A stretch of DNA of 32,000 nt from Promethearchaeum syntrophicum (GCF_008000775.2 NZ_CP042905.2:2700001-2732000); one strand, 5' to 3'; counted from the first letter of the stretch, positions 1,243 to 21,395 are shown. Made by a program: numbers and translations. Notes: generated from the sequence alone by a model not told the origin.

Positions 1243-1285
1243 AATTATGAATAATAAATATGAATAATAAAGGTATAGAATAATA

Positions 1286-2641
1286 ATGAATAATAAAGGT
1301 ATAGAATATCAAAAAGCCACGACAAAAAAGATGTTACTTTATGCATCCCCTAGATTAGGAATACAATTTTTTATAAGTATAATTGATTTTGCCCTACTAT
1401 TCTTGTATAAAGATGTTTATAGCTTAAACGGGTTGTTTGTCGGAATAGCCCTTGCACTTGGTAAACTATCTGTCGGATTCAGCCAATTTATTATAGGATG
1501 GGCGAGTGATCATACAAAAACCAGATGGGGAAGGAGAAAACCTTATATTATTATAATGACCCCGATATTATGTATTACTTTTATTATGTTATTGCTCCCA
1601 GGACTTTTTTTAGGTGCGAATCCGCCTGAGAATTCCCTTTTTATTTGGTTAGTCATATTTAACTGCTTATCCCAAGCAGCTTATTCTGTTACTACGCCCT
1701 ATCATGCATGGAATGCTGAACTTTTCCCAGTAGATCAACGCCCGAAAGTTTCCTCGTTTCAAAATATGTTCAATATAATTGGGGCTGTGATTATTACTTT
1801 GTTCACACTGGTAATTTTGACAGACGTAAAAGATAAAATAGAAGCAGATCCTACAGTAATCCCAACAAACTTTCTTGTATCAATACTTTTTTTTGCTTTT
1901 GTACTTATTACAATGAGCTTTTTTAGCACCATTGCACTACCGGTAGAAAATACTCCAGAATATGGTTCTAAAATGAAAGATGATTTGAAGATTATATTGA
2001 AAAATAAAAATTTCCTTTTAGTGACTTTCATGCAAGGATTTTGCTCCTTAGCTATTGCAATGATCTCATCCATACTCGCAAAATTTGCCGATAACGTGGT
2101 CCATTTGGGCAGTGATACTAATATTGTTGTATCCGCTTTAATGGTTATAGCAATGCTATTTGGTCTATTTTGGTTCAAACATAGAATTGAAACCAAAGGA
2201 AAGAAAAAGACACTTATTTTCATATTTCTGTGGGGAATTATAATTCTACCATTTTCATTACTAGGATTTTTCCCATTTGCTCAAAGCATGATTTATGGAA
2301 TTGTTTATATCTCCTTCGTAGCCATAGCAATCGGGGGGTGGTATCTTTTTCCTTATATAATGTATGCTGATATTGCGGATGATGACCAAAAAAAAACTGG
2401 TGAACTCAAAGCGGGGATTTATGCCGGTTTTCCATCCATAATTCTTAATATATTCCAAGCTATTTCTCTATTTTTCACAGGTTGGCTAATCGAATTACCT
2501 TTAATCACCAATGTTCCTGATACCGAACCATTTTCGATAGGACTATTATTAATGGGTCCTATAGGCTCACTATTTCTAATTATTGCTCTATTATTTGGAA
2601 AGAAATTTGTTACCCTCGATTTCTCTTGGGAAAAGCAATAA
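1286..2641 (+). CDS. MFS-type transporter, glycoside-pentoside-hexuronide (GPH) cation symporter-like
   Basis: About 12 hydrophobic segments. The loop motif SDHTKTRWGRRKPYII matches the GPH/MelB-family D-x-t-x-x-x-GRR-P signature. Confidence 0.7.
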   Translation: MNNKGIEYQKATTKKMLLYASPRLGIQFFISIIDFALLFLYKDVYSLNGLFVGIALALGKLSVGFSQFIIGWASDHTKTRWGRRKPYIIIMTPILCITFIMLLLPGLFLGANPPENSLFIWLVIFNCLSQAAYSVTTPYHAWNAELFPVDQRPKVSSFQNMFNIIGAVIITLFTLVILTDVKDKIEADPTVIPTNFLVSILFFAFVLITMSFFSTIALPVENTPEYGSKMKDDLKIILKNKNFLLVTFMQGFCSLAIAMISSILAKFADNVVHLGSDTNIVVSALMVIAMLFGLFWFKHRIETKGKKKTLIFIFLWGIIILPFSLLGFFPFAQSMIYGIVYISFVAIAIGGWYLFPYIMYADIADDDQKKTGELKAGIYAGFPSIILNIFQAISLFFTGWLIELPLITNVPDTEPFSIGLLLMGPIGSLFLIIALLFGKKFVTLDFSWEKQ

Positions 2642-2716: not shown

Positions 2717-3643
2717 CTGAGGGACATAAAATTCAATTATCAAAAGAATGGAATATTTGTTAGTTTAGGACTAATAATCCTCTTTTCATCTATAGGAGGA
2801 TATCTTACAAATTCTCAAATTTCCTCTCCCACTTTACATTTTATCTCATCAGCAAGCACCACTCAAATTCTACAAACTCCAATTTTTATCGATGGAACTG
2901 ATCCTAATCATGATTGGGATAATACTGAAAATGTTACTGGAACAGGCACTGTATCAGATCCTTATCAAATTGAGAATTTAATAATTGAAATAGATGGATA
3001 TGAAAATGGGATTTTCATTTCTAATTCAAATAAAACACTTCAAATTAAGAATTGCACAATTCTGCATAAGAATGAGATCTCTTCTGATAATGTTATGTCA
3101 GCAATCGGCATCTATTTTCAAAATTGCACAAATATTCAAGTTACAGATTGCACATTAACTCAGAATTCCTATGGTATGTTATTATTGAATTCTACTAATA
3201 TCCTAATCGAAGAAAGCACCTTCAACAACAACAAAATGACAGGGATTTATTCTAATCATTCTTCAAAAAATCTTTTTCTAAACAACAATATTAAACAAAA
3301 TAATAACACTGGATTTATACTAGAATTTTCAGATTCAAATACTATATCGGTTCACAACATTTCCGAAAATTATTTTTATGGTATCCACCTAAAAAATTCC
3401 AATGAAAATCGCATTCAAGACAGCTATATCCAAGATAATGGAAAAAGAAATGTTTTTACCCAAAATTCAGTGGGTACTCAATATTCTGGAAATACTCGAA
3501 TGGAACAATGGATTGAAGGATTTCTTGTTGAATTAGGTGCCGTTGTGTTTGTAACTGCTTATGTAATCTACAAACATTCTAAAGATGAGAAACGGTATAA
3601 AATAAAAAAAGAATTTAAAAAATTTATTGAAAATGATAACTAA
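2717..3643 (+). CDS. membrane-anchored right-handed parallel beta-helix (PbH1/NosD-like) repeat protein; start codon unresolved
   Basis: The frame is open from 2705. The N-terminal hydrophobic anchor (GIFVSLGLIILFSSIGGYL) is followed by PIFIDGTDPNHDWDNTENVTGTGTVSDPYQIENLII and about 22-aa N/S/T-rich beta-helix repeats. A C-terminal TM (FLVELGAVVFVTAYVIY) and basic tail close the protein. The track only reports it from the internal ATG at 3095. Confidence 0.6.
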   Translation: MRDIKFNYQKNGIFVSLGLIILFSSIGGYLTNSQISSPTLHFISSASTTQILQTPIFIDGTDPNHDWDNTENVTGTGTVSDPYQIENLIIEIDGYENGIFISNSNKTLQIKNCTILHKNEISSDNVMSAIGIYFQNCTNIQVTDCTLTQNSYGMLLLNSTNILIEESTFNNNKMTGIYSNHSSKNLFLNNNIKQNNNTGFILEFSDSNTISVHNISENYFYGIHLKNSNENRIQDSYIQDNGKRNVFTQNSVGTQYSGNTRMEQWIEGFLVELGAVVFVTAYVIYKHSKDEKRYKIKKEFKKFIENDN

Positions 3644-3701
3644 AGAATTTAAACATCCTAATTAATTCTTACATTCCTGTTTTCTTCTGTCCCCACATTC
3701 C
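3638..3701. repeat. left copy of a perfect 64-nt direct repeat (partner 13502-13565)
   Basis: Base-by-base identical to 13502-13565 (offset 9864). It overlaps the stop codon of the beta-helix gene. Confidence 0.95.
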
Positions 3702-3722
3702 TAGCGAGACTGCTAACTCTTT
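3669..3722 (-). pseudogene. orphan 3' stub of a RuBisCO-family gene (17 codons plus stop)
   Basis: The minus-strand reading gives KELAVSLGMWGQKKTGM*, against KELGISLGMWGQKKTGM* at the end of the intact gene at 13533-14870. An in-frame stop lies 10 codons further upstream, so there is no gene body. Confidence 0.75.
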
Positions 3723-3849
3723 AACTAAATTATCGCCAGAGAAGCGGCTTTGTCAGACTTTTTAGGTTTTTCAAAGGGTAAAATTAGCATAAAATATATT
3801 GAAATTTATTATTCATTAATCAACATTAGGTTCAATAAAATCAAAGAAT

Positions 3850-4554
3850 CTAATTATTTCTCTTTTTTCGATTTGTTCTGATTCTCGCTCTCCGCCTTTC
3901 TAATTGTTCCGCTGAATTTCTATCAATATTTTGCCCTTCAAATTGTACACCATTGGGCGGAGATTGATTACCTCTCCTTCTTGGGCGGAGGAACGCATAA
4001 CCACCAACTCCGAGAATAGCAGCACCAATTGGTATCCATAACAAATTTAAATTGCCCTCCTCTTCATCGGGAGGATTGGGGGGAACGGGATCAGGTTCTT
4101 GAGGAAAGGGTTTTGGGGTTATATGTCCCGCATGATATGTTCCCGAGGAAAGCGGATTTATAAAATAAATCTTCATTATGAAATTATACAAATATCTTCC
4201 ATTATGATAAAACAATAAATATTCTTTAGATACTATATAGAACCGTAAACCCTCAAGAATTACTTCAATACCATAAATATCTCCCGATCCACCTAATTTC
4301 TTGATAAAACTAGAACCATTTGTGAGATTCACTATATATGAACATCGGAAAGCAGTGATGTCACGAGAACTATTGATTCTAAATTTAAGGGAGTCATTGA
4401 CATCTTCCATTGTTATGTTAGTATATTCCTCATCGCTTGATTGAACTTGTCGTCGATTTTGTGGGATGTCCTTTGGATTTGGATGAATTACCACCACACA
4501 ACAAATCCCGATTGCGAATATAAGGATCATCGTTTTTTTTTTCATACTAATCAT
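3850..4554 (-). CDS. hypothetical type-I membrane/surface protein
   Basis: It has an N-terminal signal-like segment (MKKKTMILIFAIGICCVVVI), a Pro-rich linker (PFPQEPDPVPPNPPDEEE), a TM (LLWIPIGAAILGVGGYAFL) and an Arg/Lys-rich tail. No recognisable family. Confidence 0.55.
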   Translation of the reverse strand: MISMKKKTMILIFAIGICCVVVIHPNPKDIPQNRRQVQSSDEEYTNITMEDVNDSLKFRINSSRDITAFRCSYIVNLTNGSSFIKKLGGSGDIYGIEVILEGLRFYIVSKEYLLFYHNGRYLYNFIMKIYFINPLSSGTYHAGHITPKPFPQEPDPVPPNPPDEEEGNLNLLWIPIGAAILGVGGYAFLRPRRRGNQSPPNGVQFEGQNIDRNSAEQLERRRARIRTNRKKRNN

Positions 4555-4744
4555 TTTTTATTGGGTTATTTAATATCGAAAAAATTTATTTGATAATATG
4601 AGATCATTTGCAAGAAGAGTACTTTCAAGAATTCTCATTTCGGGAAAATTTCTTAATTTGTTTTTTTGTTCAATTGTTCAATCTTCTAAAAAAATACACG
4701 AATCTTTCTAGACCAATTTAAGAAACAATATTTTTAAACTGGGT

Positions 4745-5131
4745 TTATGACACAATACTCAACATGCAATATCGTTCCTCTATGATATATTCAACCCCTA
4801 TTAACGATAAATCACCCATTCCATGTCCCCACACCCCATATTTTTCCGCATCAGCGTATACCGAATAATATCCCTCATAAATACACTGTGCTAAATCCAA
4901 TCGGGAAAACCCCCCAATAACCTGATACTCGAAAACTGCTCCCTTTTCCAGCGGATATGAAAATTCTATTTTGATCGCTTGTTCGGGTATGATTATTCGG
5001 TTCGGACTGAGAAGGTGATATTTGAGCTCGGGATTTCCGAAATGAATAATGGTCGGATTATAATTATCTTCGGGATCATCATCAAACCACCGAAATTTAA
5101 AGGTTTTAATTCCCTTCTGTTTTTTTACCAT
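4745..5131 (-). CDS. hypothetical protein (128 aa), co-directional and 12 nt downstream of the LRR gene
   Basis: Clean ORF with tight spacing to the upstream LRR gene, which suggests an operon. No domain recognised. Confidence 0.5.
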   Translation of the reverse strand: MVKKQKGIKTFKFRWFDDDPEDNYNPTIIHFGNPELKYHLLSPNRIIIPEQAIKIEFSYPLEKGAVFEYQVIGGFSRLDLAQCIYEGYYSVYADAEKYGVWGHGMGDLSLIGVEYIIEERYCMLSIVS

Positions 5132-5143
5132 TTTTTAATCCAC

Positions 5144-6430
5144 CTATAAGTATATTTTTAGCCCGTTGGGGAGATTATATGTTCTTTTATCCCTTATCAT
5201 CTCTAAAACTGCATCATTAGAAGGGACATTATTCTCCAGGATTTTGATTTCAGAACTACTGGCTTCAAAAACTAATCTTTCGCGTTCATCTTCAGTCAAA
5301 GATGCGGGAGAGGAAATATATTGGGTTGCCAGGGCTTTAGGTGATTTTTCATAGTATTTATAGAGTTTTTCAATATCTGATTGTTCTTCAAAGTAGGTGT
5401 GTTTTTCTCCCTTTTTCGTTAAAAATTCATTCGTTAGTATCAGTCTGGCTTCACTATACATTTTAATGAGATATTTTGGCAAGGTCCTGATGGGATTGCC
5501 TTGGATATTTAATAGACTGAAATTCTCTAAAGTCTTGAAATTTTGAGGAGGGGATGAGAGAAGATTATCATATAAATTAAGCTCAAACAGCTTCTCGAAA
5601 TTGTCAATATACTCAGGGATGTTGGTGAGAAAATTTTTGCCTAAATTGAGAATCTTCAGATTAACGAGATTTCTAAAACTGGTGGGGAGGGTTGTCAGTT
5701 TATTTCTATTCAAATAAAGCCGTTGGAGGCTGGTGATATTGCCAAAATTCTCGGGTAAAGATGTAAGTTGATTATCGCTTACAGCAAGAATCCTAAGGGT
5801 AGATAAATTCCCAATAGTATTCGGCAATGTGTCAAGGTTGTTTTCCGTTAAATTTAGGATTTCAAGATTTTTTAAATTTCCAATACTTTCGGGGACAACG
5901 GTTAGCCGATTTCTTTCTATGTCGAAATCTTCTAGTCTTGTTAAATTTCCGAAATTCTCTGGTAAAGAAAGGATTTTATTTTCATTGAGATTCAGTCTTT
6001 CAAGGAATGCCAAATTTCCCAAAGATTCTGGCAATGTTTTGATCCGATTTTTTCTGAGATATAATCTTTTGAGGTACCTTAGATTTTCAATGTCGTCAGG
6101 GAGGGACATTAACTGATTGTTTGATAAATTGAGGTCGAGCAGATATTTGAGATTCGTAAAATTGTCGGGTAATTGCCGGAGATTGCTATGAAGGAGTTCA
6201 AGGGTGATAATGTGACCTCGGTACACTCTGAATTTTGCATCAAAGGAATGGAATTCCTCTACCGCTTCCGCTTCTTTTTTCGGGATTTTGAGCATTTCAT
6301 CACCCACCGTTATTTTACCCCTTGAACCTTTGAATTTAATCCTACAGATATTATTGAAAACAAGTTGAGTATTTCGATTTTTATTTCCATGATGAAGTAT
6401 TCCATAGAAGTATTTAATAAGCAATTCCAA
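5144..6430 (-). CDS. leucine-rich repeat (LRR) protein with conserved non-LRR N- and C-terminal modules
   Basis: About 11 consecutive 23-aa units of the form LxxLPxxIGNLxxLxxLxLxxNxL. The track start at 6430 is TTG. The ATG at 6295 (MLKIPKKEAEAVEEF...) is an equally plausible start and aligns with the N-terminus of the paralog at 10016. Confidence 0.85.
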   Translation of the reverse strand: MELLIKYFYGILHHGNKNRNTQLVFNNICRIKFKGSRGKITVGDEMLKIPKKEAEAVEEFHSFDAKFRVYRGHIITLELLHSNLRQLPDNFTNLKYLLDLNLSNNQLMSLPDDIENLRYLKRLYLRKNRIKTLPESLGNLAFLERLNLNENKILSLPENFGNLTRLEDFDIERNRLTVVPESIGNLKNLEILNLTENNLDTLPNTIGNLSTLRILAVSDNQLTSLPENFGNITSLQRLYLNRNKLTTLPTSFRNLVNLKILNLGKNFLTNIPEYIDNFEKLFELNLYDNLLSSPPQNFKTLENFSLLNIQGNPIRTLPKYLIKMYSEARLILTNEFLTKKGEKHTYFEEQSDIEKLYKYYEKSPKALATQYISSPASLTEDERERLVFEASSSEIKILENNVPSNDAVLEMIRDKRTYNLPNGLKIYL

Positions 6431-6739
6431 AAATAGAAAAAAAAATATGATCTTACTATATTACAATACCCATCCATACTGGAAAAAATTAAACCCCTTT
6501 TTCAAAATGGTCCCGCAGAATATGATTCTATATATTGGATAAAAAACCAATATCCCGGATTACCATTAGTTGCTGGAGAAATGACTCCTCATGATTATCA
6601 AGTTAAAGATCTTAAAGCTAAAATGATTTCAATTGTAACTTATGTGGAGATTTTAATGAAATGTACAGATAAATTAAATTCTCTGAAATCTAAAATCAGT
6701 GAATGATTAATTTAAATTTTTCTTATTTCCTCCATTTAT

Positions 6740-8175
6740 TTTGGGTTGATTAAAGTAGATTTCTTGCATTTGAACTTGTTTTAAATTTTCTTCTCCACTA
6801 ACCGAAGTTGAGTTTGAATAAATGAGAATTGTCGAAGGGTAGGGCCTCGTTTCCAACTTTTTAACATATTATGTTGTCGCCTCCTTCGAGCTTTCTCAAT
6901 TTGCCATGCATTATAAAGCCAGTATTGAACTGAACGCATTGTTAATTTCCGGGCATTTGTATGTGCATTGGATGGCGGACCAAGTCGATTTATATCCCGA
7001 AAACCAGTCTCAATTTGCCACCGACGATCATATTTTTGACAAATACTTGAAGCCCAACCTTGTTGAGCCTTTTTGCATCTAGGTGGAGGCTTTGTAGTCA
7101 TCATCACCATTATTTCCTTCATTGCTTCAGTTAAATCAATCCTTCTTTGTTTGAAATCCTGTCGAATATCCCGTAACCGCCGACCTTGTCGATTGGTAAA
7201 AATTAACCACACGTGGATCCCTGGCAAGTGATAAAATTTCTTTGGTGCGCCTCGAACGATGTATGATTGAATATAGTGAATATCTTTTTTTAAATAACGT
7301 TCTAAAAGCCGTTTAATTGGCTTCCACTTTCGATAGGGGCCAATATAATGGATCCCACGCGGATTTAATTCGGACAATAATTCATAGGTCGGGAACCATC
7401 GATCACCTATCACAGCTCTAACATTAAACCCATGTTGAATTATTCTATCAATGCAATGAAGGATTTTTGGGACATTTGAGTGCTTTCTTTTAATGAGATG
7501 AATTCCAACAAATAAGCTGGTTCCTTTGCTTTTTATCATCAGACCAAGATAATTTCGTTTACGAGATGTGCCAGGGCCATTATAACCTTTTGTAAGGAAT
7601 GGATTTTGAGGAAATCGCTCTGATCCATAGTACCATTGATCAGTATTATCAATTAACAAGTCAATTTGATGGGAAATAAATCCATTTTGAAGAGCATAAT
7701 TGAGTTGGGCATCAAATATCATATCATTTAATCTATTTAATATCCAAAGTGGGAGTGATTGCCGATATTTGCGTACTTGATCTCCATTAGGGCACTTTCT
7801 TTCCCGCCGTACAAGTTCTCCTAAAAATTGTCTCGGTTGAATTTTCCTGCGACGGGTGGCATTTTCCTTCTGCCAAAGTAATTTATTCAACTCATCAGAA
7901 GCTTCATCTAATGAAAGATCCATGAGGGAATGAAGTATTAATATTTCCCAAAAATCTTCAGCGGAATACTTATATCCTTTTCGTTTTGAGAGATGAGTTT
8001 GGTTGATAATTTCTAGAGCAAGATTTTTTAGCCATGGCAGCCAATAATCATATGGGCATGATTCTTCTGCGGGGTGGAGCGGGAACTCCAATCCGCTTGT
8101 TGTTACAGATTGCATGATTACAAGGAAGAATCGGCTCCTTGTAAATCTTTTATTTCGACAAAAATAAATTCATTG
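6740..8175 (-). mobile_element. insertion sequence around the transposase gene; ends approximate
   Basis: Only an imperfect candidate inverted repeat was found by eye: catttattttgggttgattaaagtagattt near 6742, against the reverse complement of 8135-8170, aatttatttttgtcgaaataaaagattt. No clear target-site duplication was identified. Confidence 0.3.
6781..8115 (-). CDS. DDE transposase, IS4/IS5-superfamily (DDE_Tnp_1-like)
   Basis: The C-terminal YDRRWQIETGFRDINRL matches the Y-x2-R-x3-E signature region of IS4/IS5-type transposases. DRWFPTYELL is typical of the second Asp region. Confidence 0.8.
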   Translation of the reverse strand: MQSVTTSGLEFPLHPAEESCPYDYWLPWLKNLALEIINQTHLSKRKGYKYSAEDFWEILILHSLMDLSLDEASDELNKLLWQKENATRRRKIQPRQFLGELVRRERKCPNGDQVRKYRQSLPLWILNRLNDMIFDAQLNYALQNGFISHQIDLLIDNTDQWYYGSERFPQNPFLTKGYNGPGTSRKRNYLGLMIKSKGTSLFVGIHLIKRKHSNVPKILHCIDRIIQHGFNVRAVIGDRWFPTYELLSELNPRGIHYIGPYRKWKPIKRLLERYLKKDIHYIQSYIVRGAPKKFYHLPGIHVWLIFTNRQGRRLRDIRQDFKQRRIDLTEAMKEIMVMMTTKPPPRCKKAQQGWASSICQKYDRRWQIETGFRDINRLGPPSNAHTNARKLTMRSVQYWLYNAWQIEKARRRRQHNMLKSWKRGPTLRQFSFIQTQLRLVEKKI

Positions 8176-8266
8176 AAAACTGAAAATAGAAAAAAAAGTT
8201 ACAGGATACAAACAATATAAAGAAATAATCACTGCTCTAAATCATATTTACTTATATAATCCACAG

Positions 8267-9946
8267 ATGGCTAAGAATTTAGCGCCATTATTATTACGCG
8301 GGGATATATTAATTGATGGTGAAGGTGATGTTTTTCTAAAATTACTGGATAAAACAAGTGTAAAAGATTTAGATTTTGTATATTATAATGAAATATTTGA
8401 ACATCTATCTTCGAGTAGATCAAGGGAGGATGGAAAAATAGCTGAAAATAATGCTAAATCAGCATTAAAAATAATATCCAATTCTTTAGATTTAGCATTA
8501 TTGGGAATTTATTTAACACAAGACATAACACATCCATCGCATATATATGGAGGGTCAAATTATATTGAAAAATTCCTACATATTATGGATGCATATATAC
8601 ATTACAATATTCCTGGTCAAAGGGAGCGAAATGCAATATTTATGGACTATAATAGAATTAGAAGACTATTAGAAATTATAGAAGATCCCGGTATAGCTAT
8701 GATTAGAGAAAATGAGATGAGTTGTATTGAGGACCTTCTAAAAAGATGTATAGATAATCAATTCGATCAACGTCAAAAAGGGTTTATTGAATTAATTAAA
8801 AGTAAGACTTCTGGAATCAGCGCTTTATATGACAACCTTATCGACGATAAAAATTATGGAGGACATATATACTCACAATATACAAATGATTTTAAAACAT
8901 CAGGAAAAACTCTTTCCTTTATGTCCAAATTATCCGCATCAGATATAGAATGGGAATTTATGAGTCAAATGCACGCCAAAACCTACATAGGTTTTCTGCA
9001 AAAAGATATTACGATGGTTTTCACTCAACTTGGTAACGATTTTACGTTTGTTGGAGGTTCAACTTCTGAACTACTATCAATTATCTCCCAAACGATGTTT
9101 AGAAGACAAATACCAGGAACCGATAAATTCGAATTAATTTATCTTCCACCAGGTCAAATAACAAATGTCGACGGAAATCTTATATCTCCTCGTACTTTAA
9201 TGATCAATAGTCAAGTATTGCTTCCGTTAATGAATAATTTAGGTCATTTCTTTCAAGTTGATTATTCAAAAAATTTTGCAGCTAAAAGAACCAATAGTCC
9301 TCAGATCGATGAAGATGCGGGTCGCGTAGTTTATATAGGTTATATGGGTATGCCCTCTACTTCTTACGTTATTGACAAACTGGAAAAAATCGAAGACATC
9401 CAAGCCCAAGGTGCTGCATTTATTAGTATTATGGGTGATGGAAATATTAGAGCAAAATTTGAATCTGTTCTTGCAAGTAGTCGATTTAGTGGTATGGGGA
9501 CAGTTCTTATTAATAAAAAACCATTCGATTATCTTGAGGAAATATCAAATAATCCCGATACATATCATTTAAGTTATGAACATATTATTGATGATATTAC
9601 ACGTATAGCAGCCGGTTTAAGTGCCCAAAATCCAATTATTTCACAATTAGCATTAAACTCGAAATATAATGCAGAAATTGCAAAAGCTTTCGGTAAGTCA
9701 GTAGATGCTCAAAGGCAAGTTACAATTAATTCAATCATGGCTATGTGGTGGAATAATTTCCGTCATTCTAAAGCACCTCGTGATCCATCACAACCTATTG
9801 GTAATATGTTTAAGGCACAATCCAAAATGTTAAAATTCTTCCTTAAATCGATTAGGAACTACTATAGACCAATTGATCCTAATTATATTCCTCCATGGGT
9901 TATATTAAACGGTTGGAAAACAGAATGGGAAAGCTATTTTAATTAA
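8267..9946 (+). CDS. hypothetical soluble protein (559 aa), orphan
   Basis: Long clean ORF with non-repetitive composition and no TM segments. I recognise no motif. Confidence 0.6.
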   Translation: MAKNLAPLLLRGDILIDGEGDVFLKLLDKTSVKDLDFVYYNEIFEHLSSSRSREDGKIAENNAKSALKIISNSLDLALLGIYLTQDITHPSHIYGGSNYIEKFLHIMDAYIHYNIPGQRERNAIFMDYNRIRRLLEIIEDPGIAMIRENEMSCIEDLLKRCIDNQFDQRQKGFIELIKSKTSGISALYDNLIDDKNYGGHIYSQYTNDFKTSGKTLSFMSKLSASDIEWEFMSQMHAKTYIGFLQKDITMVFTQLGNDFTFVGGSTSELLSIISQTMFRRQIPGTDKFELIYLPPGQITNVDGNLISPRTLMINSQVLLPLMNNLGHFFQVDYSKNFAAKRTNSPQIDEDAGRVVYIGYMGMPSTSYVIDKLEKIEDIQAQGAAFISIMGDGNIRAKFESVLASSRFSGMGTVLINKKPFDYLEEISNNPDTYHLSYEHIIDDITRIAAGLSAQNPIISQLALNSKYNAEIAKAFGKSVDAQRQVTINSIMAMWWNNFRHSKAPRDPSQPIGNMFKAQSKMLKFFLKSIRNYYRPIDPNYIPPWVILNGWKTEWESYFN

Positions 9947-10015
9947 TTTCTAAATTTTTTCATGGTATATGTTTTTATATGCCTTTTTTTATATATATTC
10001 TAAGAATGATTCAAA

Positions 10016-11431
10016 ATGAACGATATTTATAATACACCAGTGATTCACCCAGAACTATTTGTCGAAATTCCTAAAAAAGAGAGATACGTAATTGAATCAT
10101 TTGGAATTACATTTAATCGAATGACAAATTTTCCCCGCTGGAACGATATCAAAATAGATAATGGGCATGTGAGAAAAATTTTACTTTCTTTTCCCATTCA
10201 AGAAAAATTTCAACCCACTTATATGTCCCCCACTCCGCATAAAAAGATCGGAGATCAGACATATTATTATTCAAAACACAATCATCCAGAAAATTTCAAA
10301 GGAATCCCCGAAAATTTCGGAAATCTAGAGTTTCTAGAAGATGTCAAATTTGAATTTGACATTTTTGATACATTACCCGACTCGATTGGAAATTTGAAAA
10401 ACCTAAAAATCCTTAATCTTAGCAATTGTAATCTCACCGGATTACCCGACTCGATTGGAAATTTGAATAACCTAAAAATCCTTAATCTTAGCAATTGTAA
10501 TCTCACCGGATTACCCGACCCGATTGGAAATTTGAATAATCTGACCGAACTAAATTTAGGATCTAATAGTTTGCGATTCCTGCCCAAATCGATTGGAAAT
10601 TTGAAAAAGCTTACTTTACTTGATATAAGACATAATCGATTAGAAACTATTCCCGACTCGATTGGAAAATTGAATAATCTGACCGAACTAAATTTAGGAT
10701 CTAATAACCTAACATTCCTTCCAAAATCGATTGGAAATTTGAAAAATCTTAAATTTTTCCACTTAAATCACTGCAATTTTAAATCCATTCCCCCCCAAAT
10801 ACAATTTCTCACAAATTTAATTGTTCTGGATCTTAGGGCTAACCACTTGACATCTCTTCCAGAATGGATCGGAGATCTAAGAAATATTTCACGTCTCACT
10901 TTAGGATGGAATAATCTTTCTTCCTTGCCAAATTCTTTTGAGAAATTGATAAATTTATCTAATTTATCTATTGGGAATAATTATTTTACCGAACTACCCC
11001 AAGTTCTTAATAAATTCAATCAACTTGAAGCGATTTCAGTGTTGCCCAATCCTTTCAAATCTCTTGAATCCATCAAATATTTCTTTCTTAATCTTGATTT
11101 TACTTCTAGTCTTCACGCATTCATAAATTTATTCCCAGAATCGGAATCTGATAAAAAAATCCCCGATACTGTCTCCCAACTAATTCGCGAAGGAAATGGT
11201 GAAGGTTTGTTCAAATACTACGAAACACCTCTCACTGAAATTTTGGAAAAAATTATATCCGACTCTAAATCCCTTTCTGAACATGAAACCGAGCGACTTA
11301 TTTGGGAAAGCAGCGGTTCCGAAAGAAATATTCTTGAATTGCATCTTCCAAATGGTCATTTTATTTTGGAGCAAATTAACGAACGGTTGAGATTCCATGT
11401 TAAAAAAAATGGCATGCAATTATTTAAGTGA
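10016..11431 (+). CDS. leucine-rich repeat (LRR) protein, paralog of 5144-6430
   Basis: About 11 units of the 23-aa LRR type (LPDSIGNLKNLKILNLSNCNLTG...). It shares the N-terminal IPKKE...F...GH motif and the C-terminal module (LFKYYE...LSEHETERLIWESSGSERNILE) with the other LRR protein. Confidence 0.85.
   Translation: MNDIYNTPVIHPELFVEIPKKERYVIESFGITFNRMTNFPRWNDIKIDNGHVRKILLSFPIQEKFQPTYMSPTPHKKIGDQTYYYSKHNHPENFKGIPENFGNLEFLEDVKFEFDIFDTLPDSIGNLKNLKILNLSNCNLTGLPDSIGNLNNLKILNLSNCNLTGLPDPIGNLNNLTELNLGSNSLRFLPKSIGNLKKLTLLDIRHNRLETIPDSIGKLNNLTELNLGSNNLTFLPKSIGNLKNLKFFHLNHCNFKSIPPQIQFLTNLIVLDLRANHLTSLPEWIGDLRNISRLTLGWNNLSSLPNSFEKLINLSNLSIGNNYFTELPQVLNKFNQLEAISVLPNPFKSLESIKYFFLNLDFTSSLHAFINLFPESESDKKIPDTVSQLIREGNGEGLFKYYETPLTEILEKIISDSKSLSEHETERLIWESSGSERNILELHLPNGHFILEQINERLRFHVKKNGMQLFK
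10373..10510 (+). repeat. tandem duplication of one 69-bp LRR unit (2 copies, 68/69 identical)
   Basis: 10373-10441 and 10442-10510 differ at one base (gaaaaacc against gaataacc, giving K to N). Confidence 0.9.
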
Positions 11432-11788
11432 GTTTGTGTAACTTTGAAAAAAATTTGAGACTATTTTTCATTTTCTTATTTAAAGGATCAAAAAAAAATA
11501 ATACCAAAATATAGACCATCCACTTTTTTTTTCTAAAATGGCAATTTTCGGCGTTTAAACGAATCTGGAGAAAAGATAACACAACCACTTTGTCTAAAAA
11601 AGGTCCAAAAAAAAAGATAACGCAACCACTAATACCCATATTTTTTAGAAGGATTATTTACACTTTTTACCGTAATTCGCACATTTATTGGTGTGATTCA
11701 TGATAATCTTTTTTGTTTTTCCACGATATATTCTTTATTTTATTGTATTAAGAAGGAATCATATAGAAGAGGGGAGAGAGAGGAGGGA

Positions 11789-11945
11789 GGGTAAAAAAAA
11801 TTTTATTTTTTTATTTTCGAATTTTATAAACCCCTTTCTTAATGGAAGTTCATGAATAAAGACAAAATCGAAGCTTCCCAGATGAATCTAAAACGCTTCA
11901 CCTCTGATGATGGAGTAGAAATCGCCCATTATAAACCATCCTAAG
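11789..11945 (+). repeat. copy 1 of a duplicated module of about 155 nt (partner 12989-13146)
   Basis: The layout is a G-run, then an A-run and T-rich stretch, a TATA-like box (11822-11830), an ATG at 11852, and a conserved core caaaatcgaagcttcccagatgaatctaaaac (11863-11894, partner 13067-13098). Confidence 0.8.
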
Positions 11946-12361
11946 TGCGGGAAATATCCCTTAATATCTCACATCCCAATCAAGCAAGGCGGAAACAGGT
12001 GAGTTGGTGAATTAAGTTTTATCTGTTGGAATATTTTTATTTCGAAGTTGTTTTTTCTTTTGGTAAGAAAAAATGAGACAAAAACTCAGGTAAATTTGAG
12101 ACTCTTATTTAAAGAGTGTGCTTTCACCGTCATTCTGCATCTTGAAAAAAAATGAGACTTATAAAAGATAAAGAAAGCAAATTTCATGGATACATTTAAA
12201 AATTCAATTTCTGAAGTTTCAGCCATTTCTATTTAAAGGAAAATTAAAATTTGAGACAAAACACTGAAAAAATTTGAGACTCCTATATAAATGACTCGTT
12301 ATCACTGTCATTCACCATCCCGAAAAAAAATGAGACTCGGAATTCTATTTAAATAATACCA

Positions 12362-12963
12362 AAAGATAATTTTGAAACTCTCTTTTTTCTCTAAAATATA
12401 ATTTTCGCCCTTTAAACAGATTTGGAAGAATCAATATTTTTGACATTTATGATATTTTAGCAAAGATAATTTTGCAACTTAAGCCCAAAAGGCTCCCAAA
12501 CAAAGATAATTTTGCAACTATGTCTAAAAAAGGTCCAGTAAAAGGTCCAGAACCAAAGATAATTTTGCAACTTTGCTTAAAAAAGGTCAGAAATCAAAGA
12601 TAATGTTGAAACTTTGCTTAAAAAAGGTAATACCAAAAGATAAATGTTAAACTCTCTTTTTTCTCTGAAATGTAATTGTTGGCATTTAAATGAAGTTGAC
12701 CAAATCGATACTTTTGACCTTTATGGTGTTTTAGCAAAGATAATTTTGCAACTTTGCCCCAAAAGGCTCCTAAAAAAAGATAAATGTTAAACTATTTTTT
12801 CTATGGACATTTTTTACTGTTATTCCCGCTGATACCAAAAAATAAATTTAGCAAAGTTAATTCTGCAACTTTGTTTCAAAATGCGCCCAAAAAAAGATAA
12901 ATTTGCATCTTTGTCTAAAAAAGGTCCGGTAAAAGGTTCAGAAGTAAAGAAAAAATTGCAACT
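12362..12963 (+). repeat. array of 11 copies of the 18-nt motif AAAGATAATTTTGCAACT (degenerate); three more copies lie outside
   Basis: Copies start at 12362, 12462, 12502, 12555, 12596, 12636, 12736, 12776, 12853, 12893 and 12946. Outliers are at 11572 and 11613, plus one reverse copy at 13160-13177. Spacing is mostly 40-41, 53 or 100 nt, with a higher-order period of 274 nt. Confidence 0.85.
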
Positions 12964-12988
12964 CTCTTTTTTGTATGGGTTTTATGGG

Positions 12989-13146
12989 GGGGATAAAAAA
13001 ATTTTTATTTATTTTTTTTTCCGCTTTTTATATCTGCGATTTTTAATGGTAGTCCATGAAAATTGGCAAAATCGAAGCTTCGCAGATGAATTTAAAACAT
13101 TTCTGATGAAAAGTTAGAAATCACTTATATTTTGAACCCTCTTAAG
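12989..13146 (+). repeat. copy 2 of the duplicated module of about 155 nt
   Basis: It has a G7 run at 12986-12992, a TATA-like box at 13025-13033, an ATG at 13056 and the conserved core at 13067-13098. Confidence 0.8.
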
Positions 13147-13405
13147 ATAGAACAAGACGAGTTGCAGATTTATCTTTTTAAGCTGGGTAATATCTTTTTT
13201 TGGAAACAATTTTATTTTTTAGGATTACAAAACGGGGGAAAAAAATGAGACGTTTATATAAATAGCGCTAAATCAGAGTAACAAAAAATACGATTTCTCA
13301 AAAAAAAATGCGACTCTCCAGACAGGTAATTTTATGCAGTTAAAACAGTTACGCGATCCAAAACCGAACAAAGTATGTTTTTAGATTGGTGAGAATTTGC
13401 ATTGT

Positions 13406-13460
13406 GTCTCATTTTTTTATCAAGTCTCATTTTTTTTATTGCATAAATTCTCATTTTTTT
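13406..13460 (-). repeat. three closely spaced reverse-orientation copies of the A-run+TGAGAC motif
   Basis: gtctcattttttt at 13406-13418, gtctcatttttttt at 13424-13437, and the variant ttctcattttttt at 13448-13460. On the plus strand these read as T7-T8 tracts. Confidence 0.8.
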
Positions 13461-13501
13461 AACGAAGTTACAGTTTGATCAGAAAAAAAAGGTAAACCAA
13501 A

Positions 13502-13565
13502 AACTAAAGAATTTAAACATCCTAATTAATTCTTACATTCCTGTTTTCTTCTGTCCCCACATTCC
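13502..13565. repeat. right copy of the perfect 64-nt direct repeat (partner 3638-3701)
   Basis: It covers the stop and last 10 codons of the RuBisCO-family gene plus the 31 nt downstream of it. Confidence 0.95.
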
Positions 13566-14870
13566 GAGGGAAATCCCTAACTCTTTATGATCTTTTGCAT
13601 AAGTTTTTACAGGTATTCCTTCCATTGCAGCAGTAATCGCTTGTCTAAATGCAATTGCTCCGGCTGTTGGTCCATCTTGGTGACTATGAATTCCGCCACC
13701 TGCTCCGAGCATGATATTAAATCCTAAATCTCTTGTAGCATATTCAACCATACCAGGCGTAATCCCCCCAGAAGGCATTGGCATCATCGGTTTTATGTGA
13801 GGTAGAGGATAAACACATTCCATTACGTTCTGAATAAATCGTTCGGGAACAACTGGTGCTTTTCCATATGGTGCTGGTAAAACTATTATATCGCAACCCA
13901 CTAATCGAGGCAATTTTCCAAGGGTTAACTTTGATGTTACGCCAGTGAAAGGATCTTCGTACCACACACCAGAAAAATCCATGTGGCCTTGAATTGGAAG
14001 TTTTACGCTCGGATCCTCAGCAACTTGTTGAACCGCGGTTAGTCCTTGTGGTAGATAATTAATTAACATCCCATTTCCTCCATGTTTTTGTACTACATCA
14101 ATATTTCTAAAAATCCTTGGAGTATTATCTGTTACATTAACCATATAAATAGTTTTTTCCCCAGTTTCTTCTTTAGCTTTATCAAGTCCCTCCATAACCT
14201 TGGTTACTCGATCTTCCAAAGTATTGAATTTCTGGTCTGCAATTAATTCATCATCTTTTACAACATCAACTCCACCAAGGGCTACTTTATAAGCTAATTC
14301 TCCTGCTACTTCAGCAGTATGACCTGTACATGGTTTAATCATGTTATTAAGGAGTGGTCGTTTTTCAACACCGAGGTATTTGCGAACCCCTTCAATTCCA
14401 AATCGTGGACCTGGCATAGTAGCGAGAATGTCTTTTGGAAACCACATATCCAGAAGTTTAATTTTTCCACCCATACTAATATTTCCAATAAGAGCAGTAA
14501 AAAGCAGGGCAAAATTCAATTTCCCTTCAGTGTTCACAAGATTAATTTTTGGCCATGCGATTTGCATAACATAATCTCGATATTCAATAGTTTTTGGAAG
14601 TTCATATTCCCAATTTGGTAATTCATGACAACCAATTAATTTCGCAATATGATTTTTACGGACTTCAGCAGTTTCAGCAGGAACTCTTATCCAAGTTCCA
14701 GTGCTTTGTTCAACACCAGCGAATTGCCCCATGGCTAAACCCGATTGTTTTTTACCCAATCGAGTAAAAAAGGTTCCGATAACGTAATCTTCCAACTCTA
14801 AACCCTCTTTGATTCCCCATGGTTGGGTTAGTATATCTTCAAAATGTGCTAATGGCATTTTTTTTTTCAC
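13533..14870 (-). CDS. RuBisCO large-subunit family protein; active-site substitutions point to a RuBisCO-like protein (form IV-like) rather than a carboxylase
   Basis: Family motifs are present: EQSTGTW, GNISMGG, GPRFGIEGVRK, GGVDVVKDDE, PSGGITPG, GAGGGIHSHQDGPTAGAIAFRQA. IKPCTG replaces IKPKxG, GHMDFSG replaces HxHRAxHA, and DIIVLPAPYGK replaces DxxHxGTxxGK. The track start at 14870 is GTG; ATG at 14858 is an alternative start. Confidence 0.85.
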   Translation of the reverse strand: MKKKMPLAHFEDILTQPWGIKEGLELEDYVIGTFFTRLGKKQSGLAMGQFAGVEQSTGTWIRVPAETAEVRKNHIAKLIGCHELPNWEYELPKTIEYRDYVMQIAWPKINLVNTEGKLNFALLFTALIGNISMGGKIKLLDMWFPKDILATMPGPRFGIEGVRKYLGVEKRPLLNNMIKPCTGHTAEVAGELAYKVALGGVDVVKDDELIADQKFNTLEDRVTKVMEGLDKAKEETGEKTIYMVNVTDNTPRIFRNIDVVQKHGGNGMLINYLPQGLTAVQQVAEDPSVKLPIQGHMDFSGVWYEDPFTGVTSKLTLGKLPRLVGCDIIVLPAPYGKAPVVPERFIQNVMECVYPLPHIKPMMPMPSGGITPGMVEYATRDLGFNIMLGAGGGIHSHQDGPTAGAIAFRQAITAAMEGIPVKTYAKDHKELGISLGMWGQKKTGM

Positions 14871-15254
14871 TTTTATTATTTTTCAATATCTGTCTTATGT
14901 ATAAAAAAATAAATTGAATCTAAATACAACTCTAAGACAATATACGTTAAATAAAACAAGAAGATTATAAATATAAATAGATTTAGTAAAATTCTAAGAA
15001 ATTGGGAAAGTCAAAATTAATCAAAATTCAAAAATGGTTTCAAATCTGTCAGAATTTGCTTTAAACTTTTTACATTAGCGTATTAATATGTATAAAAACG
15101 GGATATTTCATATAATTGAATTATTACTTTTATCGGAATTCGTAAGAGAAGATTTAGCGTGGTATGCAAAAGTCTATAGGTTTTTAGTGATTCTCTAAAC
15201 TTGATATACTATTTCATAAAACAAAAATATAATAATTATTTGAAGGTGAGAACA

Positions 15255-15542
15255 ATGGCAAGAAAAATAAAATGGCAAGGTGAGAAATTAAGATTGGTTA
15301 AACGCCATTTTGTAAATATTGGGGGAATGACAGTTCTTTTAATTGATGAAACAAACTTTCCTCATCTAATTGTTAGTTTAAATCCAAAAAACTACATCCT
15401 TGAGCCCAACGAAATAATTGTTAAAGATTTTGGAGATAATCATGGTATTAAGGATGTTTTAATTTCTGAGAAATATCTAATCCCAACAGGAAAATGGGTT
15501 GAAATAAAAAATGAATTATGTGAAATTTGTAAGGTTCTTTAA
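15255..15542 (+). CDS. hypothetical small protein (95 aa)
   Basis: The ATG at 15255 is preceded by GGTGA 6 nt upstream. The track start at 15201 is an upstream TTG. No domain recognised. Confidence 0.45.
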   Translation: MARKIKWQGEKLRLVKRHFVNIGGMTVLLIDETNFPHLIVSLNPKNYILEPNEIIVKDFGDNHGIKDVLISEKYLIPTGKWVEIKNELCEICKVL

Positions 15543-15815
15543 TTTATTTTAACGTCCTTGCTCATTTTTGAATTTATAAAACTTTTTTAGAAATAAGAAT
15601 TTTCTGAACAAATTTATATTTTTTTAATTCATAAAAGGTGCAATTCTGGTTATTTTTAAGTTAATACATATTCTACAATCTTTGTTTTCAATTCTGGACA
15701 AATATGATTAGAAAATTAGTATTCTGAGGAACATATGTGAAAAGTAGGGAGAAACATTTAATAAGCTAGGCAATGTGAAGATTATTAAGGAAATAAATCA
15801 CAAGAAGGTTTGTAT

Positions 15816-17384
15816 ATGTCAAATAAATATATTTTATCTTATGATCACGGTACATCAGGAATGAAAACGGCAATAATATCTACACAAGGAGAAATAATAG
15901 GTTTTAATGTAGAAGAATACGAATTATTCCATTATGAACAAGGATGTGCTGAGCAAGACCCAAATGATTGGTGGAACTCCCTGATTAAAACTACTCAGGC
16001 ATTGCTCTCGCAAAATTTAGTACCAATTGAAGATATCGTCGCGATATGTAGCTCAAATCAGATGGATGGCACGATTCCCATAGATAAAGAGGGAAATAAT
16101 TTATATAATTGTATAAGTTGGATGGATACTCGAGGGGCTACAGCCGTTCGCGAACTCTGTGGTGGGCCAGTTGCAGAATATAACCCATTTAAGCTTATCA
16201 AATTTCTTAGAAAAACAGGAGCAGCTCCAGGGTTGAGTGGAAAAGATATTCTCGGTCATATTTTATGGTTAAAAGATGCTCATCCTGAAATTTATAAAAA
16301 AACGTGGAAATTTATGGACTGTAAAGATTATCTAAATTTTCGATTAACAGGGAAAGTAGCCACATCTTATGATTGCGCAGTTTTAACATTCCTACTTAAT
16401 ACTCAAGATATTAATAATCTTTATTATGATGAAAAATTGCTTGAAATGGTAAATATTCCCCGAGAAAAATTTCCAGATCCTTACCCCTCTACCCATATTT
16501 TAGGAACTCTAACGGAAGAAGTAGCTGAAACGTTAGGATTAGCGCCATCAACAAAAGTTATAATAGGTGCAGGGGATATGGGTTCAGCTCAGGTCGGTTC
16601 GGGAGCAATTGAATATAATCAAGCACATATTTCAATCGGAAGTTCATCTTGGGTCATGACACATTCGAAAAAGCGAAAAATCGATATTATTCATACTATT
16701 CCCTCCTTACCTGCTGCAATTCCGGGAAGATATATATCTTTTGGTGAACAAGAAAGTGCAGGTATTAATTTATCATGGCTAAGAGATAATATTTTGTATC
16801 ACAAAGATGAATTATTACGAGACGAACAAAAATCGGATGTTTATAAGATATTTGATAGTCTAGTTGAACAAACCGAAGCGGGATCAAAAAAATTAATTTT
16901 TACTCCATGGCTTTGGGGAGAACGTTGTCCGATTGAGGATCACACCATTAGAGGAGGTTTGCATAATGTATCGCTAGAAATTGAGCGAAAACATCTATTG
17001 AGAGCTATTTACGAAGGAGTAGCATATAACTCTAGATGGGTTTTCGAACCTTTAACCAAAATGGTACACAATAGATTGGATCCTATCGTATTAATTGGGG
17101 GAGGTGCAATTTCAGATATTTGGTGTCAAATTTACGCCGATGTTTTAGATCGAACAGTAAAGCAACACGCTCATCCAAAAGAAGGTGTTTGTATAGGAGC
17201 TGCTTTAATTGCATCTGTAGCTTTGGAATATATTACATGGGATCAAATTCCGGATCTGATAAAATACAAAAAGGAATATAAGCCAAATCCTGCAAATCGT
17301 GAGATTTATGATGAATTATTTGCGGAATATAAAGCGATCTATAAAAACAATAAAAAAATGTATCGCAGATTGAACCATTTCTAA
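15816..17384 (+). CDS. FGGY-family carbohydrate kinase (xylulokinase/ribulokinase-like)
   Basis: The N-terminal ILSYDHGTSGMKTAII...EQDPNDWW and the overall length are typical of FGGY kinases. The ATG at 15816 is preferred over the TTG at 15810. Confidence 0.85.
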   Translation: MSNKYILSYDHGTSGMKTAIISTQGEIIGFNVEEYELFHYEQGCAEQDPNDWWNSLIKTTQALLSQNLVPIEDIVAICSSNQMDGTIPIDKEGNNLYNCISWMDTRGATAVRELCGGPVAEYNPFKLIKFLRKTGAAPGLSGKDILGHILWLKDAHPEIYKKTWKFMDCKDYLNFRLTGKVATSYDCAVLTFLLNTQDINNLYYDEKLLEMVNIPREKFPDPYPSTHILGTLTEEVAETLGLAPSTKVIIGAGDMGSAQVGSGAIEYNQAHISIGSSSWVMTHSKKRKIDIIHTIPSLPAAIPGRYISFGEQESAGINLSWLRDNILYHKDELLRDEQKSDVYKIFDSLVEQTEAGSKKLIFTPWLWGERCPIEDHTIRGGLHNVSLEIERKHLLRAIYEGVAYNSRWVFEPLTKMVHNRLDPIVLIGGGAISDIWCQIYADVLDRTVKQHAHPKEGVCIGAALIASVALEYITWDQIPDLIKYKKEYKPNPANREIYDELFAEYKAIYKNNKKMYRRLNHF

Positions 17385-17398
17385 GAATATACTACCTA

Positions 17399-18034
17399 TT
17401 ATGAATTTTGAGCAATTCTGTTTTTTTCTTCAGGTGGTAGACAATCGAAGCACATTGAATTTTGGATTTTTTTATAATTCTTTTTACAGATAGGACATAA
17501 ATCATGCCCATTTTCTAAAGCATAATGACATACTTTGCAGAGAATAATTGTGTCTTGCGCGAGATTCATATAATTGGGAATAGGGGGTGCATGTTTTTCT
17601 TCCAATATTGTGTTTATTTCATCTCGATACTTCCAAATAAAAATTCGGATCCCCCTTTTTCCAAGATTGAAGTTATATTTTACCTCAATTTTTGTATTAG
17701 ATTCATCCAATTTCTGGAATTTTTGACATTTCTTGCAGGTAACGTTCTTATATTTATTATTGGAAACTATTTGCTGATTATCGCATAATGGGCAATGGAA
17801 AAATCTTTCTTTTTTTCCTTGGAACGGAATTTCTCCTGATCGCATTTTACTCTCTATCAACTGCTTAACTACCCTCCGTTCCATAATATTTCGCAATGAA
17901 CGTTCGGTGTAATGATGGTGGATTTGGAGATCGTGTTTTTTCCCACATTGCTGACAAAATTGATCCTGAATTAGTTTTTTTCTTTGATCTTTCCATTCTT
18001 TAGTATTCCAACTTCGGGAATATTTGGCAGTCAT
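17399..18034 (-). CDS. Cys-rich zinc-ribbon protein with split HNH-endonuclease-like motifs
   Basis: W..W..QRKKLI....CQQCG....LQIHHH resembles the N-terminal half of HNH, and ILCKVCHYALENGH resembles the C-terminal half. Extra CxxC pairs lie between them (CPLC...CKKC, CPIC...CFDC). The ATG at 18034 is preferred over the TTG at 18058. Confidence 0.45.
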   Translation of the reverse strand: MTAKYSRSWNTKEWKDQRKKLIQDQFCQQCGKKHDLQIHHHYTERSLRNIMERRVVKQLIESKMRSGEIPFQGKKERFFHCPLCDNQQIVSNNKYKNVTCKKCQKFQKLDESNTKIEVKYNFNLGKRGIRIFIWKYRDEINTILEEKHAPPIPNYMNLAQDTIILCKVCHYALENGHDLCPICKKNYKKIQNSMCFDCLPPEEKNRIAQNS

Positions 18035-18082
18035 GAAAATAAATAATGGTATAAGCAATAAAAAAAAAATTAATCTGAAAGA

Positions 18083-19528: not shown

Positions 19529-19643
19529 AAATATCACTTCATTCGATAATATAATTTCGTCTCATTCCTATTATAACTCTTTTTATGGAATAATTGTATT
19601 TTTTTAGTGAAAATCTCTAGGTCAAATTTGTTAAAAAAAAAAA

Positions 19644-20387: not shown

Positions 20388-20692
20388 TTAATTCACTTAT
20401 TTCTTTTTTGATAAAAAATGTTTATTTTCTTATATTAAAACAGAACAAATAAATCTTAAATTTCTTTCTTTTTTTAATCAAATTTAGTCAAAAATAAATT
20501 TTTGTTGTGTTTACTCAAGGTTAAGGCATTTTTAAAGTGTTTAAGTATTAAAAAAATATCGTAATTTCTCGATTGGTTAGCTATTTTATTATTTTCTATA
20601 TTCCTTCAAGATAAAAGATTAATAAGCTAAATTACCATAAAGTAATTAATTGTTTCAAATATCTTAAATTATTCAAGATAAAGGTTAAAATT

Positions 20693-21376: not shown

Positions 21377-21395
21377 TTTCTTACAGATTGAGAAA

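Follow-up and report, generated by a model that had tools for sequence, protein, structure and literature searches.

The stretch analysed here is a 32,000-nt window of the Promethearchaeum syntrophicum MK-D1 reference genome, whose numbering is used throughout. It holds an island of 9,778 bp (3724-13501) that is, on balance, probably a horizontally acquired islet, placed by Campbell-type insertion at the 3' end of an intact gene for a RuBisCO-like protein (RLP). An earlier note on this DNA had proposed site-specific integration into the 3' end of that gene. Integration there is supported by an empty site in one sister species, a different occupant of the same site in another, and repeat copies of mosaic composition; the present data fit site-specific as well as homology-driven insertion.

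The island is bracketed by direct repeats of the RLP 3' end. A repeat search of the window found 3638-3701 and 13502-13565 to be identical at all 64 of 64 nt, as first reported in the note, and the homology was then extended to 86 nt (3638-3723 and 13502-13587; 93% identity, 6 mismatches). The decay in similarity described past the perfect part, with 16 of 22 nt matching, corresponds to these 6 mismatches, all of which are confined to the 22 nt at the gene-upstream end (p = 1.6e-4 under uniform scatter); in the distal copy this diverged arm occupies 3702-3723. The right copy comprises the last 10 codons of the RLP gene (17 including the imperfect part), the stop codon and 31 nt of downstream sequence, and the left copy is an orphan stub, ...KELAVSLGMWGQKKTGM* when translated from the minus strand and directly preceded by stops in each frame; both had been read correctly from the outset. 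With as many as 3 mismatches allowed, a 26-nt core pattern has exactly two occurrences in the window, as compared to 0.00 expected from shuffles. Sensitive blastn and tblastn searches of the interval yielded no further RLP fragment, and hence no third attachment-site (att) copy.

To place the island among relatives, a scan was made of one genome per GTDB species with the MK-D1 RLP as query, and two congeners were returned: Promethearchaeum sp. CSMAG_2442 (locus L002), whose RLP shares 93% amino acid identity with that of MK-D1, and CSMAG_2396 (locus L011), with 89%. The site in CSMAG_2442 is empty. L002 655-4546 aligns to window 17384-13500 and L002 4461-8203 to window 3723-1, such that the RLP stop codon is followed by 24 nt and then by a convergent beta-helix gene, with window 3724-13499 absent. 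This is the arrangement the earlier note had suggested looking for, with the RLP gene adjoining the beta-helix gene in a relative. At the same junction, CSMAG_2396 carries a different insert of ~6 kb that encodes a 1165-aa orphan and a 616-aa leucine-rich repeat (LRR) protein and lies between two copies of a separate 69-nt repeat, likewise from the RLP 3' end (8667-8735 and 14685-14753, 2 mismatches). The two islands share no DNA similarity and no non-LRR protein, and the limits of their repeats relative to the stop codon differ at both ends, running from -52 to +31 in MK-D1 and from -66 to the stop in L011. Because the different island in L011 comes with its own RLP 3'-end repeat, the junction between the RLP and beta-helix genes has received insertions repeatedly in the genus Promethearchaeum and is not the product of a one-off segmental duplication. 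A second copy of the RLP 3' end was absent from the fetched flank of the other RLP loci (Harpocratesius, other Promethearchaeota, Chloroflexota, Actinomycetota, Bathyarchaeia and others), and from within 10 kb at L135, L003-L005 and other more distant RLP loci.

A second data set from MK-D1 refines the picture of the repeats. Short-read sequencing of a mixed culture, with Sanger gap filling, underlies the reference genome, and its authors acknowledge sequence heterogeneity (PMC7015854). Contigs of run DRR199588 were obtained from Logan by exact protein look-up. Imachi et al. 2020 list this run, under data availability, as their MK-D1 expression data (PMC7015854), so the contigs stem from RNA-seq reads, with residual DNA possible. 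Two contigs match the window at 100% (L001, 13193-22583; L083, 8156-10429), and a third (L082, DRR199588_43) matches at 100% over 6024-3703. Leftward from 3702, this third contig differs from the reference at 111 alignment positions in ~3.7 kb (~3%), including a 26-nt indel at 1260-1285, and the switch between haplotypes at 3702/3703 falls at the exact inner edge of the perfect 64-mer. Codon differences in the left flank are mostly synonymous (synonymous to other, 23:4 in an MFS gene and 7:1 in a CDP-alcohol transferase gene), which argues for real allelic divergence, and the reference versions of both proteins are missing from the DRR199588 assembly. The stub of this second haplotype differs from the RLP-proximal copy at 13 of 86 positions, located on either side of a perfect 23-nt core, GGAATGTGGGGACAGAAGAAAAC, and it ends in ...ACT GGA ATG TAG as compared to ...ACA GGA ATG TAA in the gene. 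The perfection attributed to the 64-mer is thus upheld by the reference sequence and contradicted by the DRR199588 assembly; it is a property of the reference haplotype, and the robust feature is a diverged repeat of ~86 nt with a 23-nt core. An identical island on two left flanks could mean that two backgrounds each underwent integration or exchange, that a tract of homologous recombination stopped where the homology did, or that the reference mixes strains. As a separate observation on this flank, window 1253-1304, between the CDP-alcohol transferase and MFS genes, is a 26-nt tandem duplication (AATAA(A/T)ATGAATAATAAAGGTATAG x2), of which the DRR199588 haplotype, given the indel above, carries one copy.

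These data also bear on explanations without mobile DNA, in which the repeats would owe their origin to local duplication of a segment, to gene conversion or to faulty assembly. The mixed-culture, short-read origin of the reference, with its Sanger-filled gaps and acknowledged heterogeneity, lends such explanations some substance, as does the failure of the DRR199588 assembly to reproduce the perfect 64-mer. Nonetheless, they deserve almost no credence: both island junctions were recovered in independent DRR199588 Logan contigs, the mismatches between copies are clustered and not scattered, and the segmental duplication or gene-conversion tract that the earlier note had kept as its alternative is disfavoured by the CSMAG_2442 empty site together with the different CSMAG_2396 insert.

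The divergence between and within loci points to when the repeats were formed. Third codon positions of the RLP gene are 62-67% identical among the three Promethearchaeum species, which are about equally distant from one another, and 12 of the 31 intergenic nt past the RLP stop differ between MK-D1 and L002. The two copies within a locus differ at 0 of 64 positions in the window and at 2 of 69 in L011. Because the copies are near-identical when set against the third-position divergence, the repeats appear to be young and to have arisen after speciation, independently in the MK-D1 and L011 lineages, unless gene conversion has kept them alike. The latter would be required if a single ancient insertion were followed by piecemeal replacement of cargo, gene conversion of the repeats and loss from CSMAG_2442 by repeat-to-repeat deletion. 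LRR genes are present at both occupied loci, deletion between direct repeats yields a clean empty site, and the near-equal distances among the three species leave the order of events without polarity, all of which suits an ancient insertion. This history is nevertheless rather improbable, as the repeat limits of the window and L011 differ at both ends, the islands have neither DNA nor non-LRR proteins in common, and conversion must have homogenised 31 fast-evolving intergenic nt perfectly yet left the adjacent 22 nt 27% diverged.

The positions of the mismatches are informative as well. In the window they span -41 to -31 only and lie on the stub side, where the stub arm encodes Ala-Val as the CSMAG_2442 allele does (2 differences in 22 nt), as opposed to the Gly-Ile of MK-D1's own gene (6 differences). 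In L011 the mismatches are at -13 and -1; there the gene-proximal copy is derived (...TGI*), and the stub keeps ...TGM*, the state common to all other species, and then continues into native downstream DNA. This layout fits one recombination between two pre-existing, slightly different att sequences. Target duplication by staggered cuts is disfavoured because identical copies would be expected. A single crossover could account for the window, DRR199588 and L011 alike only if it lay between -30 and -14 (GGAATGTGGGGACAGAA, the first 17 nt of GGAATGTGGGGACAGAAGAAAAC), and from the mismatch positions we infer that the crossover took place there.

In the proposed insertion, incoming DNA would bring along the RLP 3' end as a copy of ~86 nt and, following formation of a circular intermediate, would recombine conservatively with the chromosomal RLP 3' end. 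The RLP frame would stay intact, the gene retaining its own upstream part and gaining the element-borne end, and the stub moved to the far end would consist of the element-borne upstream part and the native end. The present islets could then be decayed elements that retain attL and attR, akin to cis-mobilizable elements (CIMEs), or cargo moved by a recombinase encoded elsewhere. The enzyme would most likely be a tyrosine-type integrase that acted in trans or has since been lost, a type favoured because of archaeal precedents for protein-gene 3' ends and for att lengths (PMC6563490). The locus has end repeats with an intact target gene, an empty site and mosaic copies, as expected of an integrated element, and lacks an internal integrase; it retains attL and attR and lacks integration and transfer genes, as expected of a CIME-like remnant.

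The main rival is an insertion driven by homology alone, with a single ancient insertion the weaker competitor. Circular or looped DNA with a short RLP 3' fragment would enter by a RadA-dependent single crossover and produce the same geometry with no dedicated recombinase, and islands would later be exchanged between strains by homologous recombination via conserved flanks. In its favour, integrases are absent from both islands, the repeats, at 69-86 nt, are long and of unequal extent, and the stub arm is closer to the L002 RLP allele than to its own gene (2 versus 6 mismatches in 22 nt). Furthermore, the DRR199588 left flank is ~3% different up to the att core and identical beyond it, like a tract ending with homology. 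We nonetheless consider this route unlikely. It needs a pre-existing circle with an RLP fragment, which would most simply come from site-specific excision; the same 17-nt crossover interval in three comparisons is only weakly expected under homology and is expected for a fixed cleavage site; and a perfect core of 23 nt is short for efficient recombination. A still more doubtful idea is that the RLP 3' end is a dedicated cargo-exchange site, at which integrase-less cassettes of LRR modules are swapped by an unrecognised recombinase, either a member of the family of the island gene orf559, in which the C-terminal half shows a weak Foldseek resemblance to PD-(D/E)xK endonucleases, or a host enzyme, with the non-coding arm of the island as a recombination, replication or regulatory module. 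If this were true, the two haplotypes with an identical island and ~3% different left flanks would record exchange within the MK-D1 culture lineage.

Returning to Campbell-type insertion of a horizontally acquired islet, several results weigh against it. Searches of all open reading frames (ORFs) with Pfam, PHROGs and NCBIfam detected no integrase, excisionase, replication initiator, capsid or terminase in either island, and Pfam found no integrase remnant in a six-frame translation of 11432-13532; the absence of an integrase from the interval had already been remarked upon. Base composition is host-like, with a GC content of 0.328 in the island and 0.319 in the flanks, and a tetranucleotide distance of 0.151 as compared to 0.131 +/- 0.008 (maximum 0.153) for equal-sized flank chunks, so the check for a compositional difference proposed earlier disclosed no clear one. 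Exact-pattern scans for the att core came back empty on IMG/VR viral and JGI metagenome contigs, and no relatives of the island proteins were present on IMG/VR contigs. The cargo modules (orf559-LRR and LRR-orf128) look like ordinary Lokiarchaeial accessory genes because they occur at other chromosomal places in relatives. Lastly, the comparison rests on three congeneric loci in all.

Other kinds of element were considered and set aside. An SSV-type partitioned integrase is excluded by stops in all three minus-strand frames 5' of the stub and by the non-coding DNA beside the other copy. A casposon would not fit the lack of Cas1 and of terminal inverted repeats, nor the 86-nt repeat as compared to a target-site duplication of 14-15 bp. 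A composite or insertion sequence (IS)-driven transposon is at odds with the lone transposase gene (6781-8115), which lies internally, and with island ends devoid of IS copies and inverted repeats; the repeat search found no terminal inverted repeats between the island ends. Tandem accretion was rejected for want of a third att copy. A provirus or integrated plasmid was rejected given the missing capsid, terminase and replication-initiator genes, the iteron-like arm being the only plasmid-like trait. PADLOC identified no known defence proteins among the island proteins, and sequence searches of these proteins against PDB chains gave no match. Coordinates of the features are collected in Table 1.

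Table 1. Features of the RLP insertion site and its island in the MK-D1 window.
Feature	Position	Strand	Remarks
Convergent beta-helix (NosD-like) gene flanking the empty site	2825..3643	+	Final 6 nt inside the repeat
Distal att-like repeat (attR-like)	3638..3723	-	Orphan RLP 3'-end stub reading KELAVSLGMWGQKKTGM*
Inserted island, 9,778 bp	3724..13501	.	Missing from the orthologous CSMAG_2442 locus
orf234 (DSAG12_02963)	3850..4554	-	Signal/transmembrane N-terminus and C-terminal transmembrane anchor
Two-gene module, LRR1 (5144-6430) then orf128 (4745-5131, DSAG12_02964)	4745..6430	-	
DDE transposase, ISH3/IS4 type	6781..8115	-	Secondary IS insertion within the island
Two-gene module, orf559 (8267-9946, DSAG12_02968) then LRR2 (10016-11431)	8267..11431	+	
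Repeat-rich non-coding arm, 2.07 kb	11432..13501	.	Adjoins the gene-proximal repeat
Three tandem copies of AAAAAAATGAGA(C/A)	13397..13461	-	41-105 nt from the repeat edge
Gene-proximal att-like repeat (attL-like)	13502..13587	-	Perfect 64-mer, 13502-13565
23-nt segment GGAATGTGGGGACAGAAGAAAAC	13543..13565, also 3679-3701	-	Sole part identical across the RLP-proximal copy and both stub haplotypes
Target gene, type IV RuBisCO-like protein (QEE17139.1), intact, 441 aa	13533..14858	-	Pfam RuBisCO_large, 1.8e-45

The island's contents are as the earlier note had listed them: orphan proteins, LRR paralogues, an IS, a 559-aa orphan and an iteron-like region. The product of orf234 had no match to known families. 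LRR1 and LRR2 are paralogues with 35% identity and a non-LRR C-terminal domain in common, and the pairing of LRR1 with orf128 is also present on a metagenomic contig (L177). Within LRR2, window 10307-10767 consists of near-perfect 69-nt (23-codon) tandem repeats, 97% identical over 2.4 copies, at which the Logan contigs break; this indicates that the LRR units of LRR2 expanded very recently.

While orf559 at first seemed to be a strict ORFan, an exhaustive HMMER scan overturned that view with 17 relatives, all on short contigs of Promethearchaeota metagenome-assembled genomes or sediment metagenomes. It belongs to a small family known only from Promethearchaeota, with conserved motifs that include HIMDAxxH, FPQLG, GAAFIS, NNPxxY and WWxNFxNS. 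A single-sequence AlphaFold2 model was unusable (pLDDT 36), and a model made from the family alignment was confident for residues ~270-559 alone. A search with this model yielded no significant match in PDB or BFVD. The weak, non-significant BFVD matches (best E 0.16-0.18) include several PD-(D/E)xK-type endonucleases, and one match had a probability of 0.90 and a TM score of 0.42 over 128 columns; a PD-(D/E)xK-like fold for the C-terminal half is a lead that the predicted model offers.

A relative of orf559 with 38% identity is encoded on L180, a 'Prometheoarchaeum_2' contig with 84% identity to window 16104-21979. On this contig, orf559-like and LRR genes (5649-7963) follow a Macro-domain gene, and synteny with the window, which extends to 21979, ends 8 nt past the Macro gene; at this position MK-D1 has orf331 (22165-23160). 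The conserved block that runs from RLP and FGGY to Macro thus also ends in a variable junction on the Macro side, the second of its kind. The L180 spacer at 5740-6010, which separates the Macro gene from the orf559-like gene, holds a short ORF whose product, judged by eye, may resemble the C-terminal cyclin-fold part of a TFB/TFIIB-like protein.

The non-coding arm is rich in repeated motifs. It contains nine matches (up to 1 mismatch) to an iteron pattern of the AAAGATAATTTTGCAA type, partly in a 41-nt tandem array, and 10 of the window's 12 AAWWTGAGAC motifs, as compared to 0.79 expected window-wide; several of these are directly 5' of TATA-like boxes. The tandem AAAAAAATGAGA(C/A) copies are candidate arm-type or regulatory sites. 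Several blocks are also duplicated, and in one the repeated sequence is a short N-terminal coding fragment, MNKDKIEASQMNLKRF...; the ~107-nt blocks at 11793-11899 and 12997-13103 are 75% identical, each starts a short ORF (MNKDKIEASQMNLKRF... and MKIGKIEASQMNLKHF*), and they look like remnants of a gene 5' end plus promoter. The arm motifs were not present in the related loci compared. The iteron 18-mer had only single chance matches in IMG/VR, on giant-virus contigs, and Rfam assigned no family at gathering score, with one sub-threshold match to CRISPR-DR26 in the arm. The arm could contain an origin, arm-type recombinase sites or small-RNA promoters.

The RLP was classed as type IV because its best NCBIfam matches, DK-MTP-1-P enolase and type III RuBisCO, fall below cut-off, and its ORF is unbroken in all cases compared. 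It is paired with an FGGY-family carbohydrate kinase (together window 13533-17384) at nearly all of ~130 fetched loci, which span Promethearchaeota, Bathyarchaeia, Chloroflexota, Actinomycetota and Caldisericota and often have a class-III aminotransferase close by; the pairing looks like a conserved RLP pathway. On a JGI contig (L094, 2813-3811), an RLP 96% identical to that of MK-D1 stops at residue 257 and runs into a gene resembling bacterial-type ribosomal protein L23. This contig was set aside, the junction with a bacterial-type ribosomal protein gene being probably the result of chimeric assembly. The CSMAG_2396 locus has two further lineage-specific segments, a 655-aa orphan gene (L011 5132-7099) between the orf113 homologue and RLP, and ~1.07 kb with 224-aa and 72-aa ORFs (L011 14754-15826) between the stub and the beta-helix gene. 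On the other side of the island, the beta-helix frame is open from 2825 and has no ATG, GTG or TTG until 3095, the first canonical start. The CSMAG_2442 orthologue has 317 aa with a signal-like N-terminus, the NCBI annotation gives 210-217 aa, and the MK-D1 gene may have lost its N-terminal part. Of the flanking genes, that for MFS encodes QEE17129.1 and that for CDP-alcohol transferase QEE17128.1.

Very few Asgard archaea have been cultured, MK-D1 among them, and the locus offers a PCR-testable insertion site with a defined att, a known empty-site sequence and two different occupants. Excision and the recombinase behind it could be sought there, and the site might serve as a landing place for genetic tools, which the lineage lacks. 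It also illustrates interspecies movement of modules encoding LRR proteins, which Lokiarchaeia possess in abundance. No description of this locus turned up in the literature that could be searched on MK-D1 or Asgard mobile elements.

Cryptic islets flanked by att sites at the 3' end of a protein gene have been described before, and the present locus, a further example, is mildly unusual in that both occupants are without a recognisable recombinase; this more likely reflects decay than novelty. A familiar model is provided by phage 21 and e14 in E. coli icd, where the element brings a diverged 3' end of the target gene, the mostly synonymous element-borne codons complete the gene, and the original end is left as a stub. 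The layout is like that seen here, with an element-borne gene end and a stub at the other junction, although phage 21 and e14 are prophages with their own integrase and excisionase and a longer gene-end copy (~165 nt). Archaeal parallels are the cryptic integrated elements surveyed by Krupovic et al. 2019 (PMC6563490), which likewise have flanking direct repeats with one over the end of an intact protein gene, sister-species empty sites, unrelated elements in the same target gene, mostly unknown cargo and internal IS. Among the thaumarchaeal elements, 14 of 68 are in the 3'-distal part of a protein gene, which unrelated elements sometimes share (PMC6563490). Unlike the two islands described here, those elements were recognised by SSV-type or pNOB8-type integrase genes, and the repeats of 69-86 nt are unlike thaumarchaeal att sites, mostly <26 bp, and nearer to the 29-69 bp of crenarchaeal ones (PMC6563490). 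The CIMEs of Firmicutes, decayed integrative and conjugative or integrative and mobilizable elements (ICEs and IMEs) that keep attL and attR without integration genes, resemble the islets in having att repeats at the 3' end of a housekeeping-type gene, no integration or transfer genes and a reused site (PMC5704250). CIMEs are bacterial, however, and their descent from ICEs or IMEs and their mobilisation by accretion with an incoming element have been shown experimentally (PMC5704250); for the islets, no parent element or helper is known, and no autonomous relative or tandem array was found. Within the Asgard archaea, there is a likeness to integrated plasmid-like elements such as Yucahu-i of Atabeyarchaeia, also a chromosomal insertion of ~10 kb that is flanked by direct repeats and present or absent among relatives, which differs in its 11-bp repeat, in having a tyrosine recombinase as its first gene and in a circular form observed in reads (PMC11529989).

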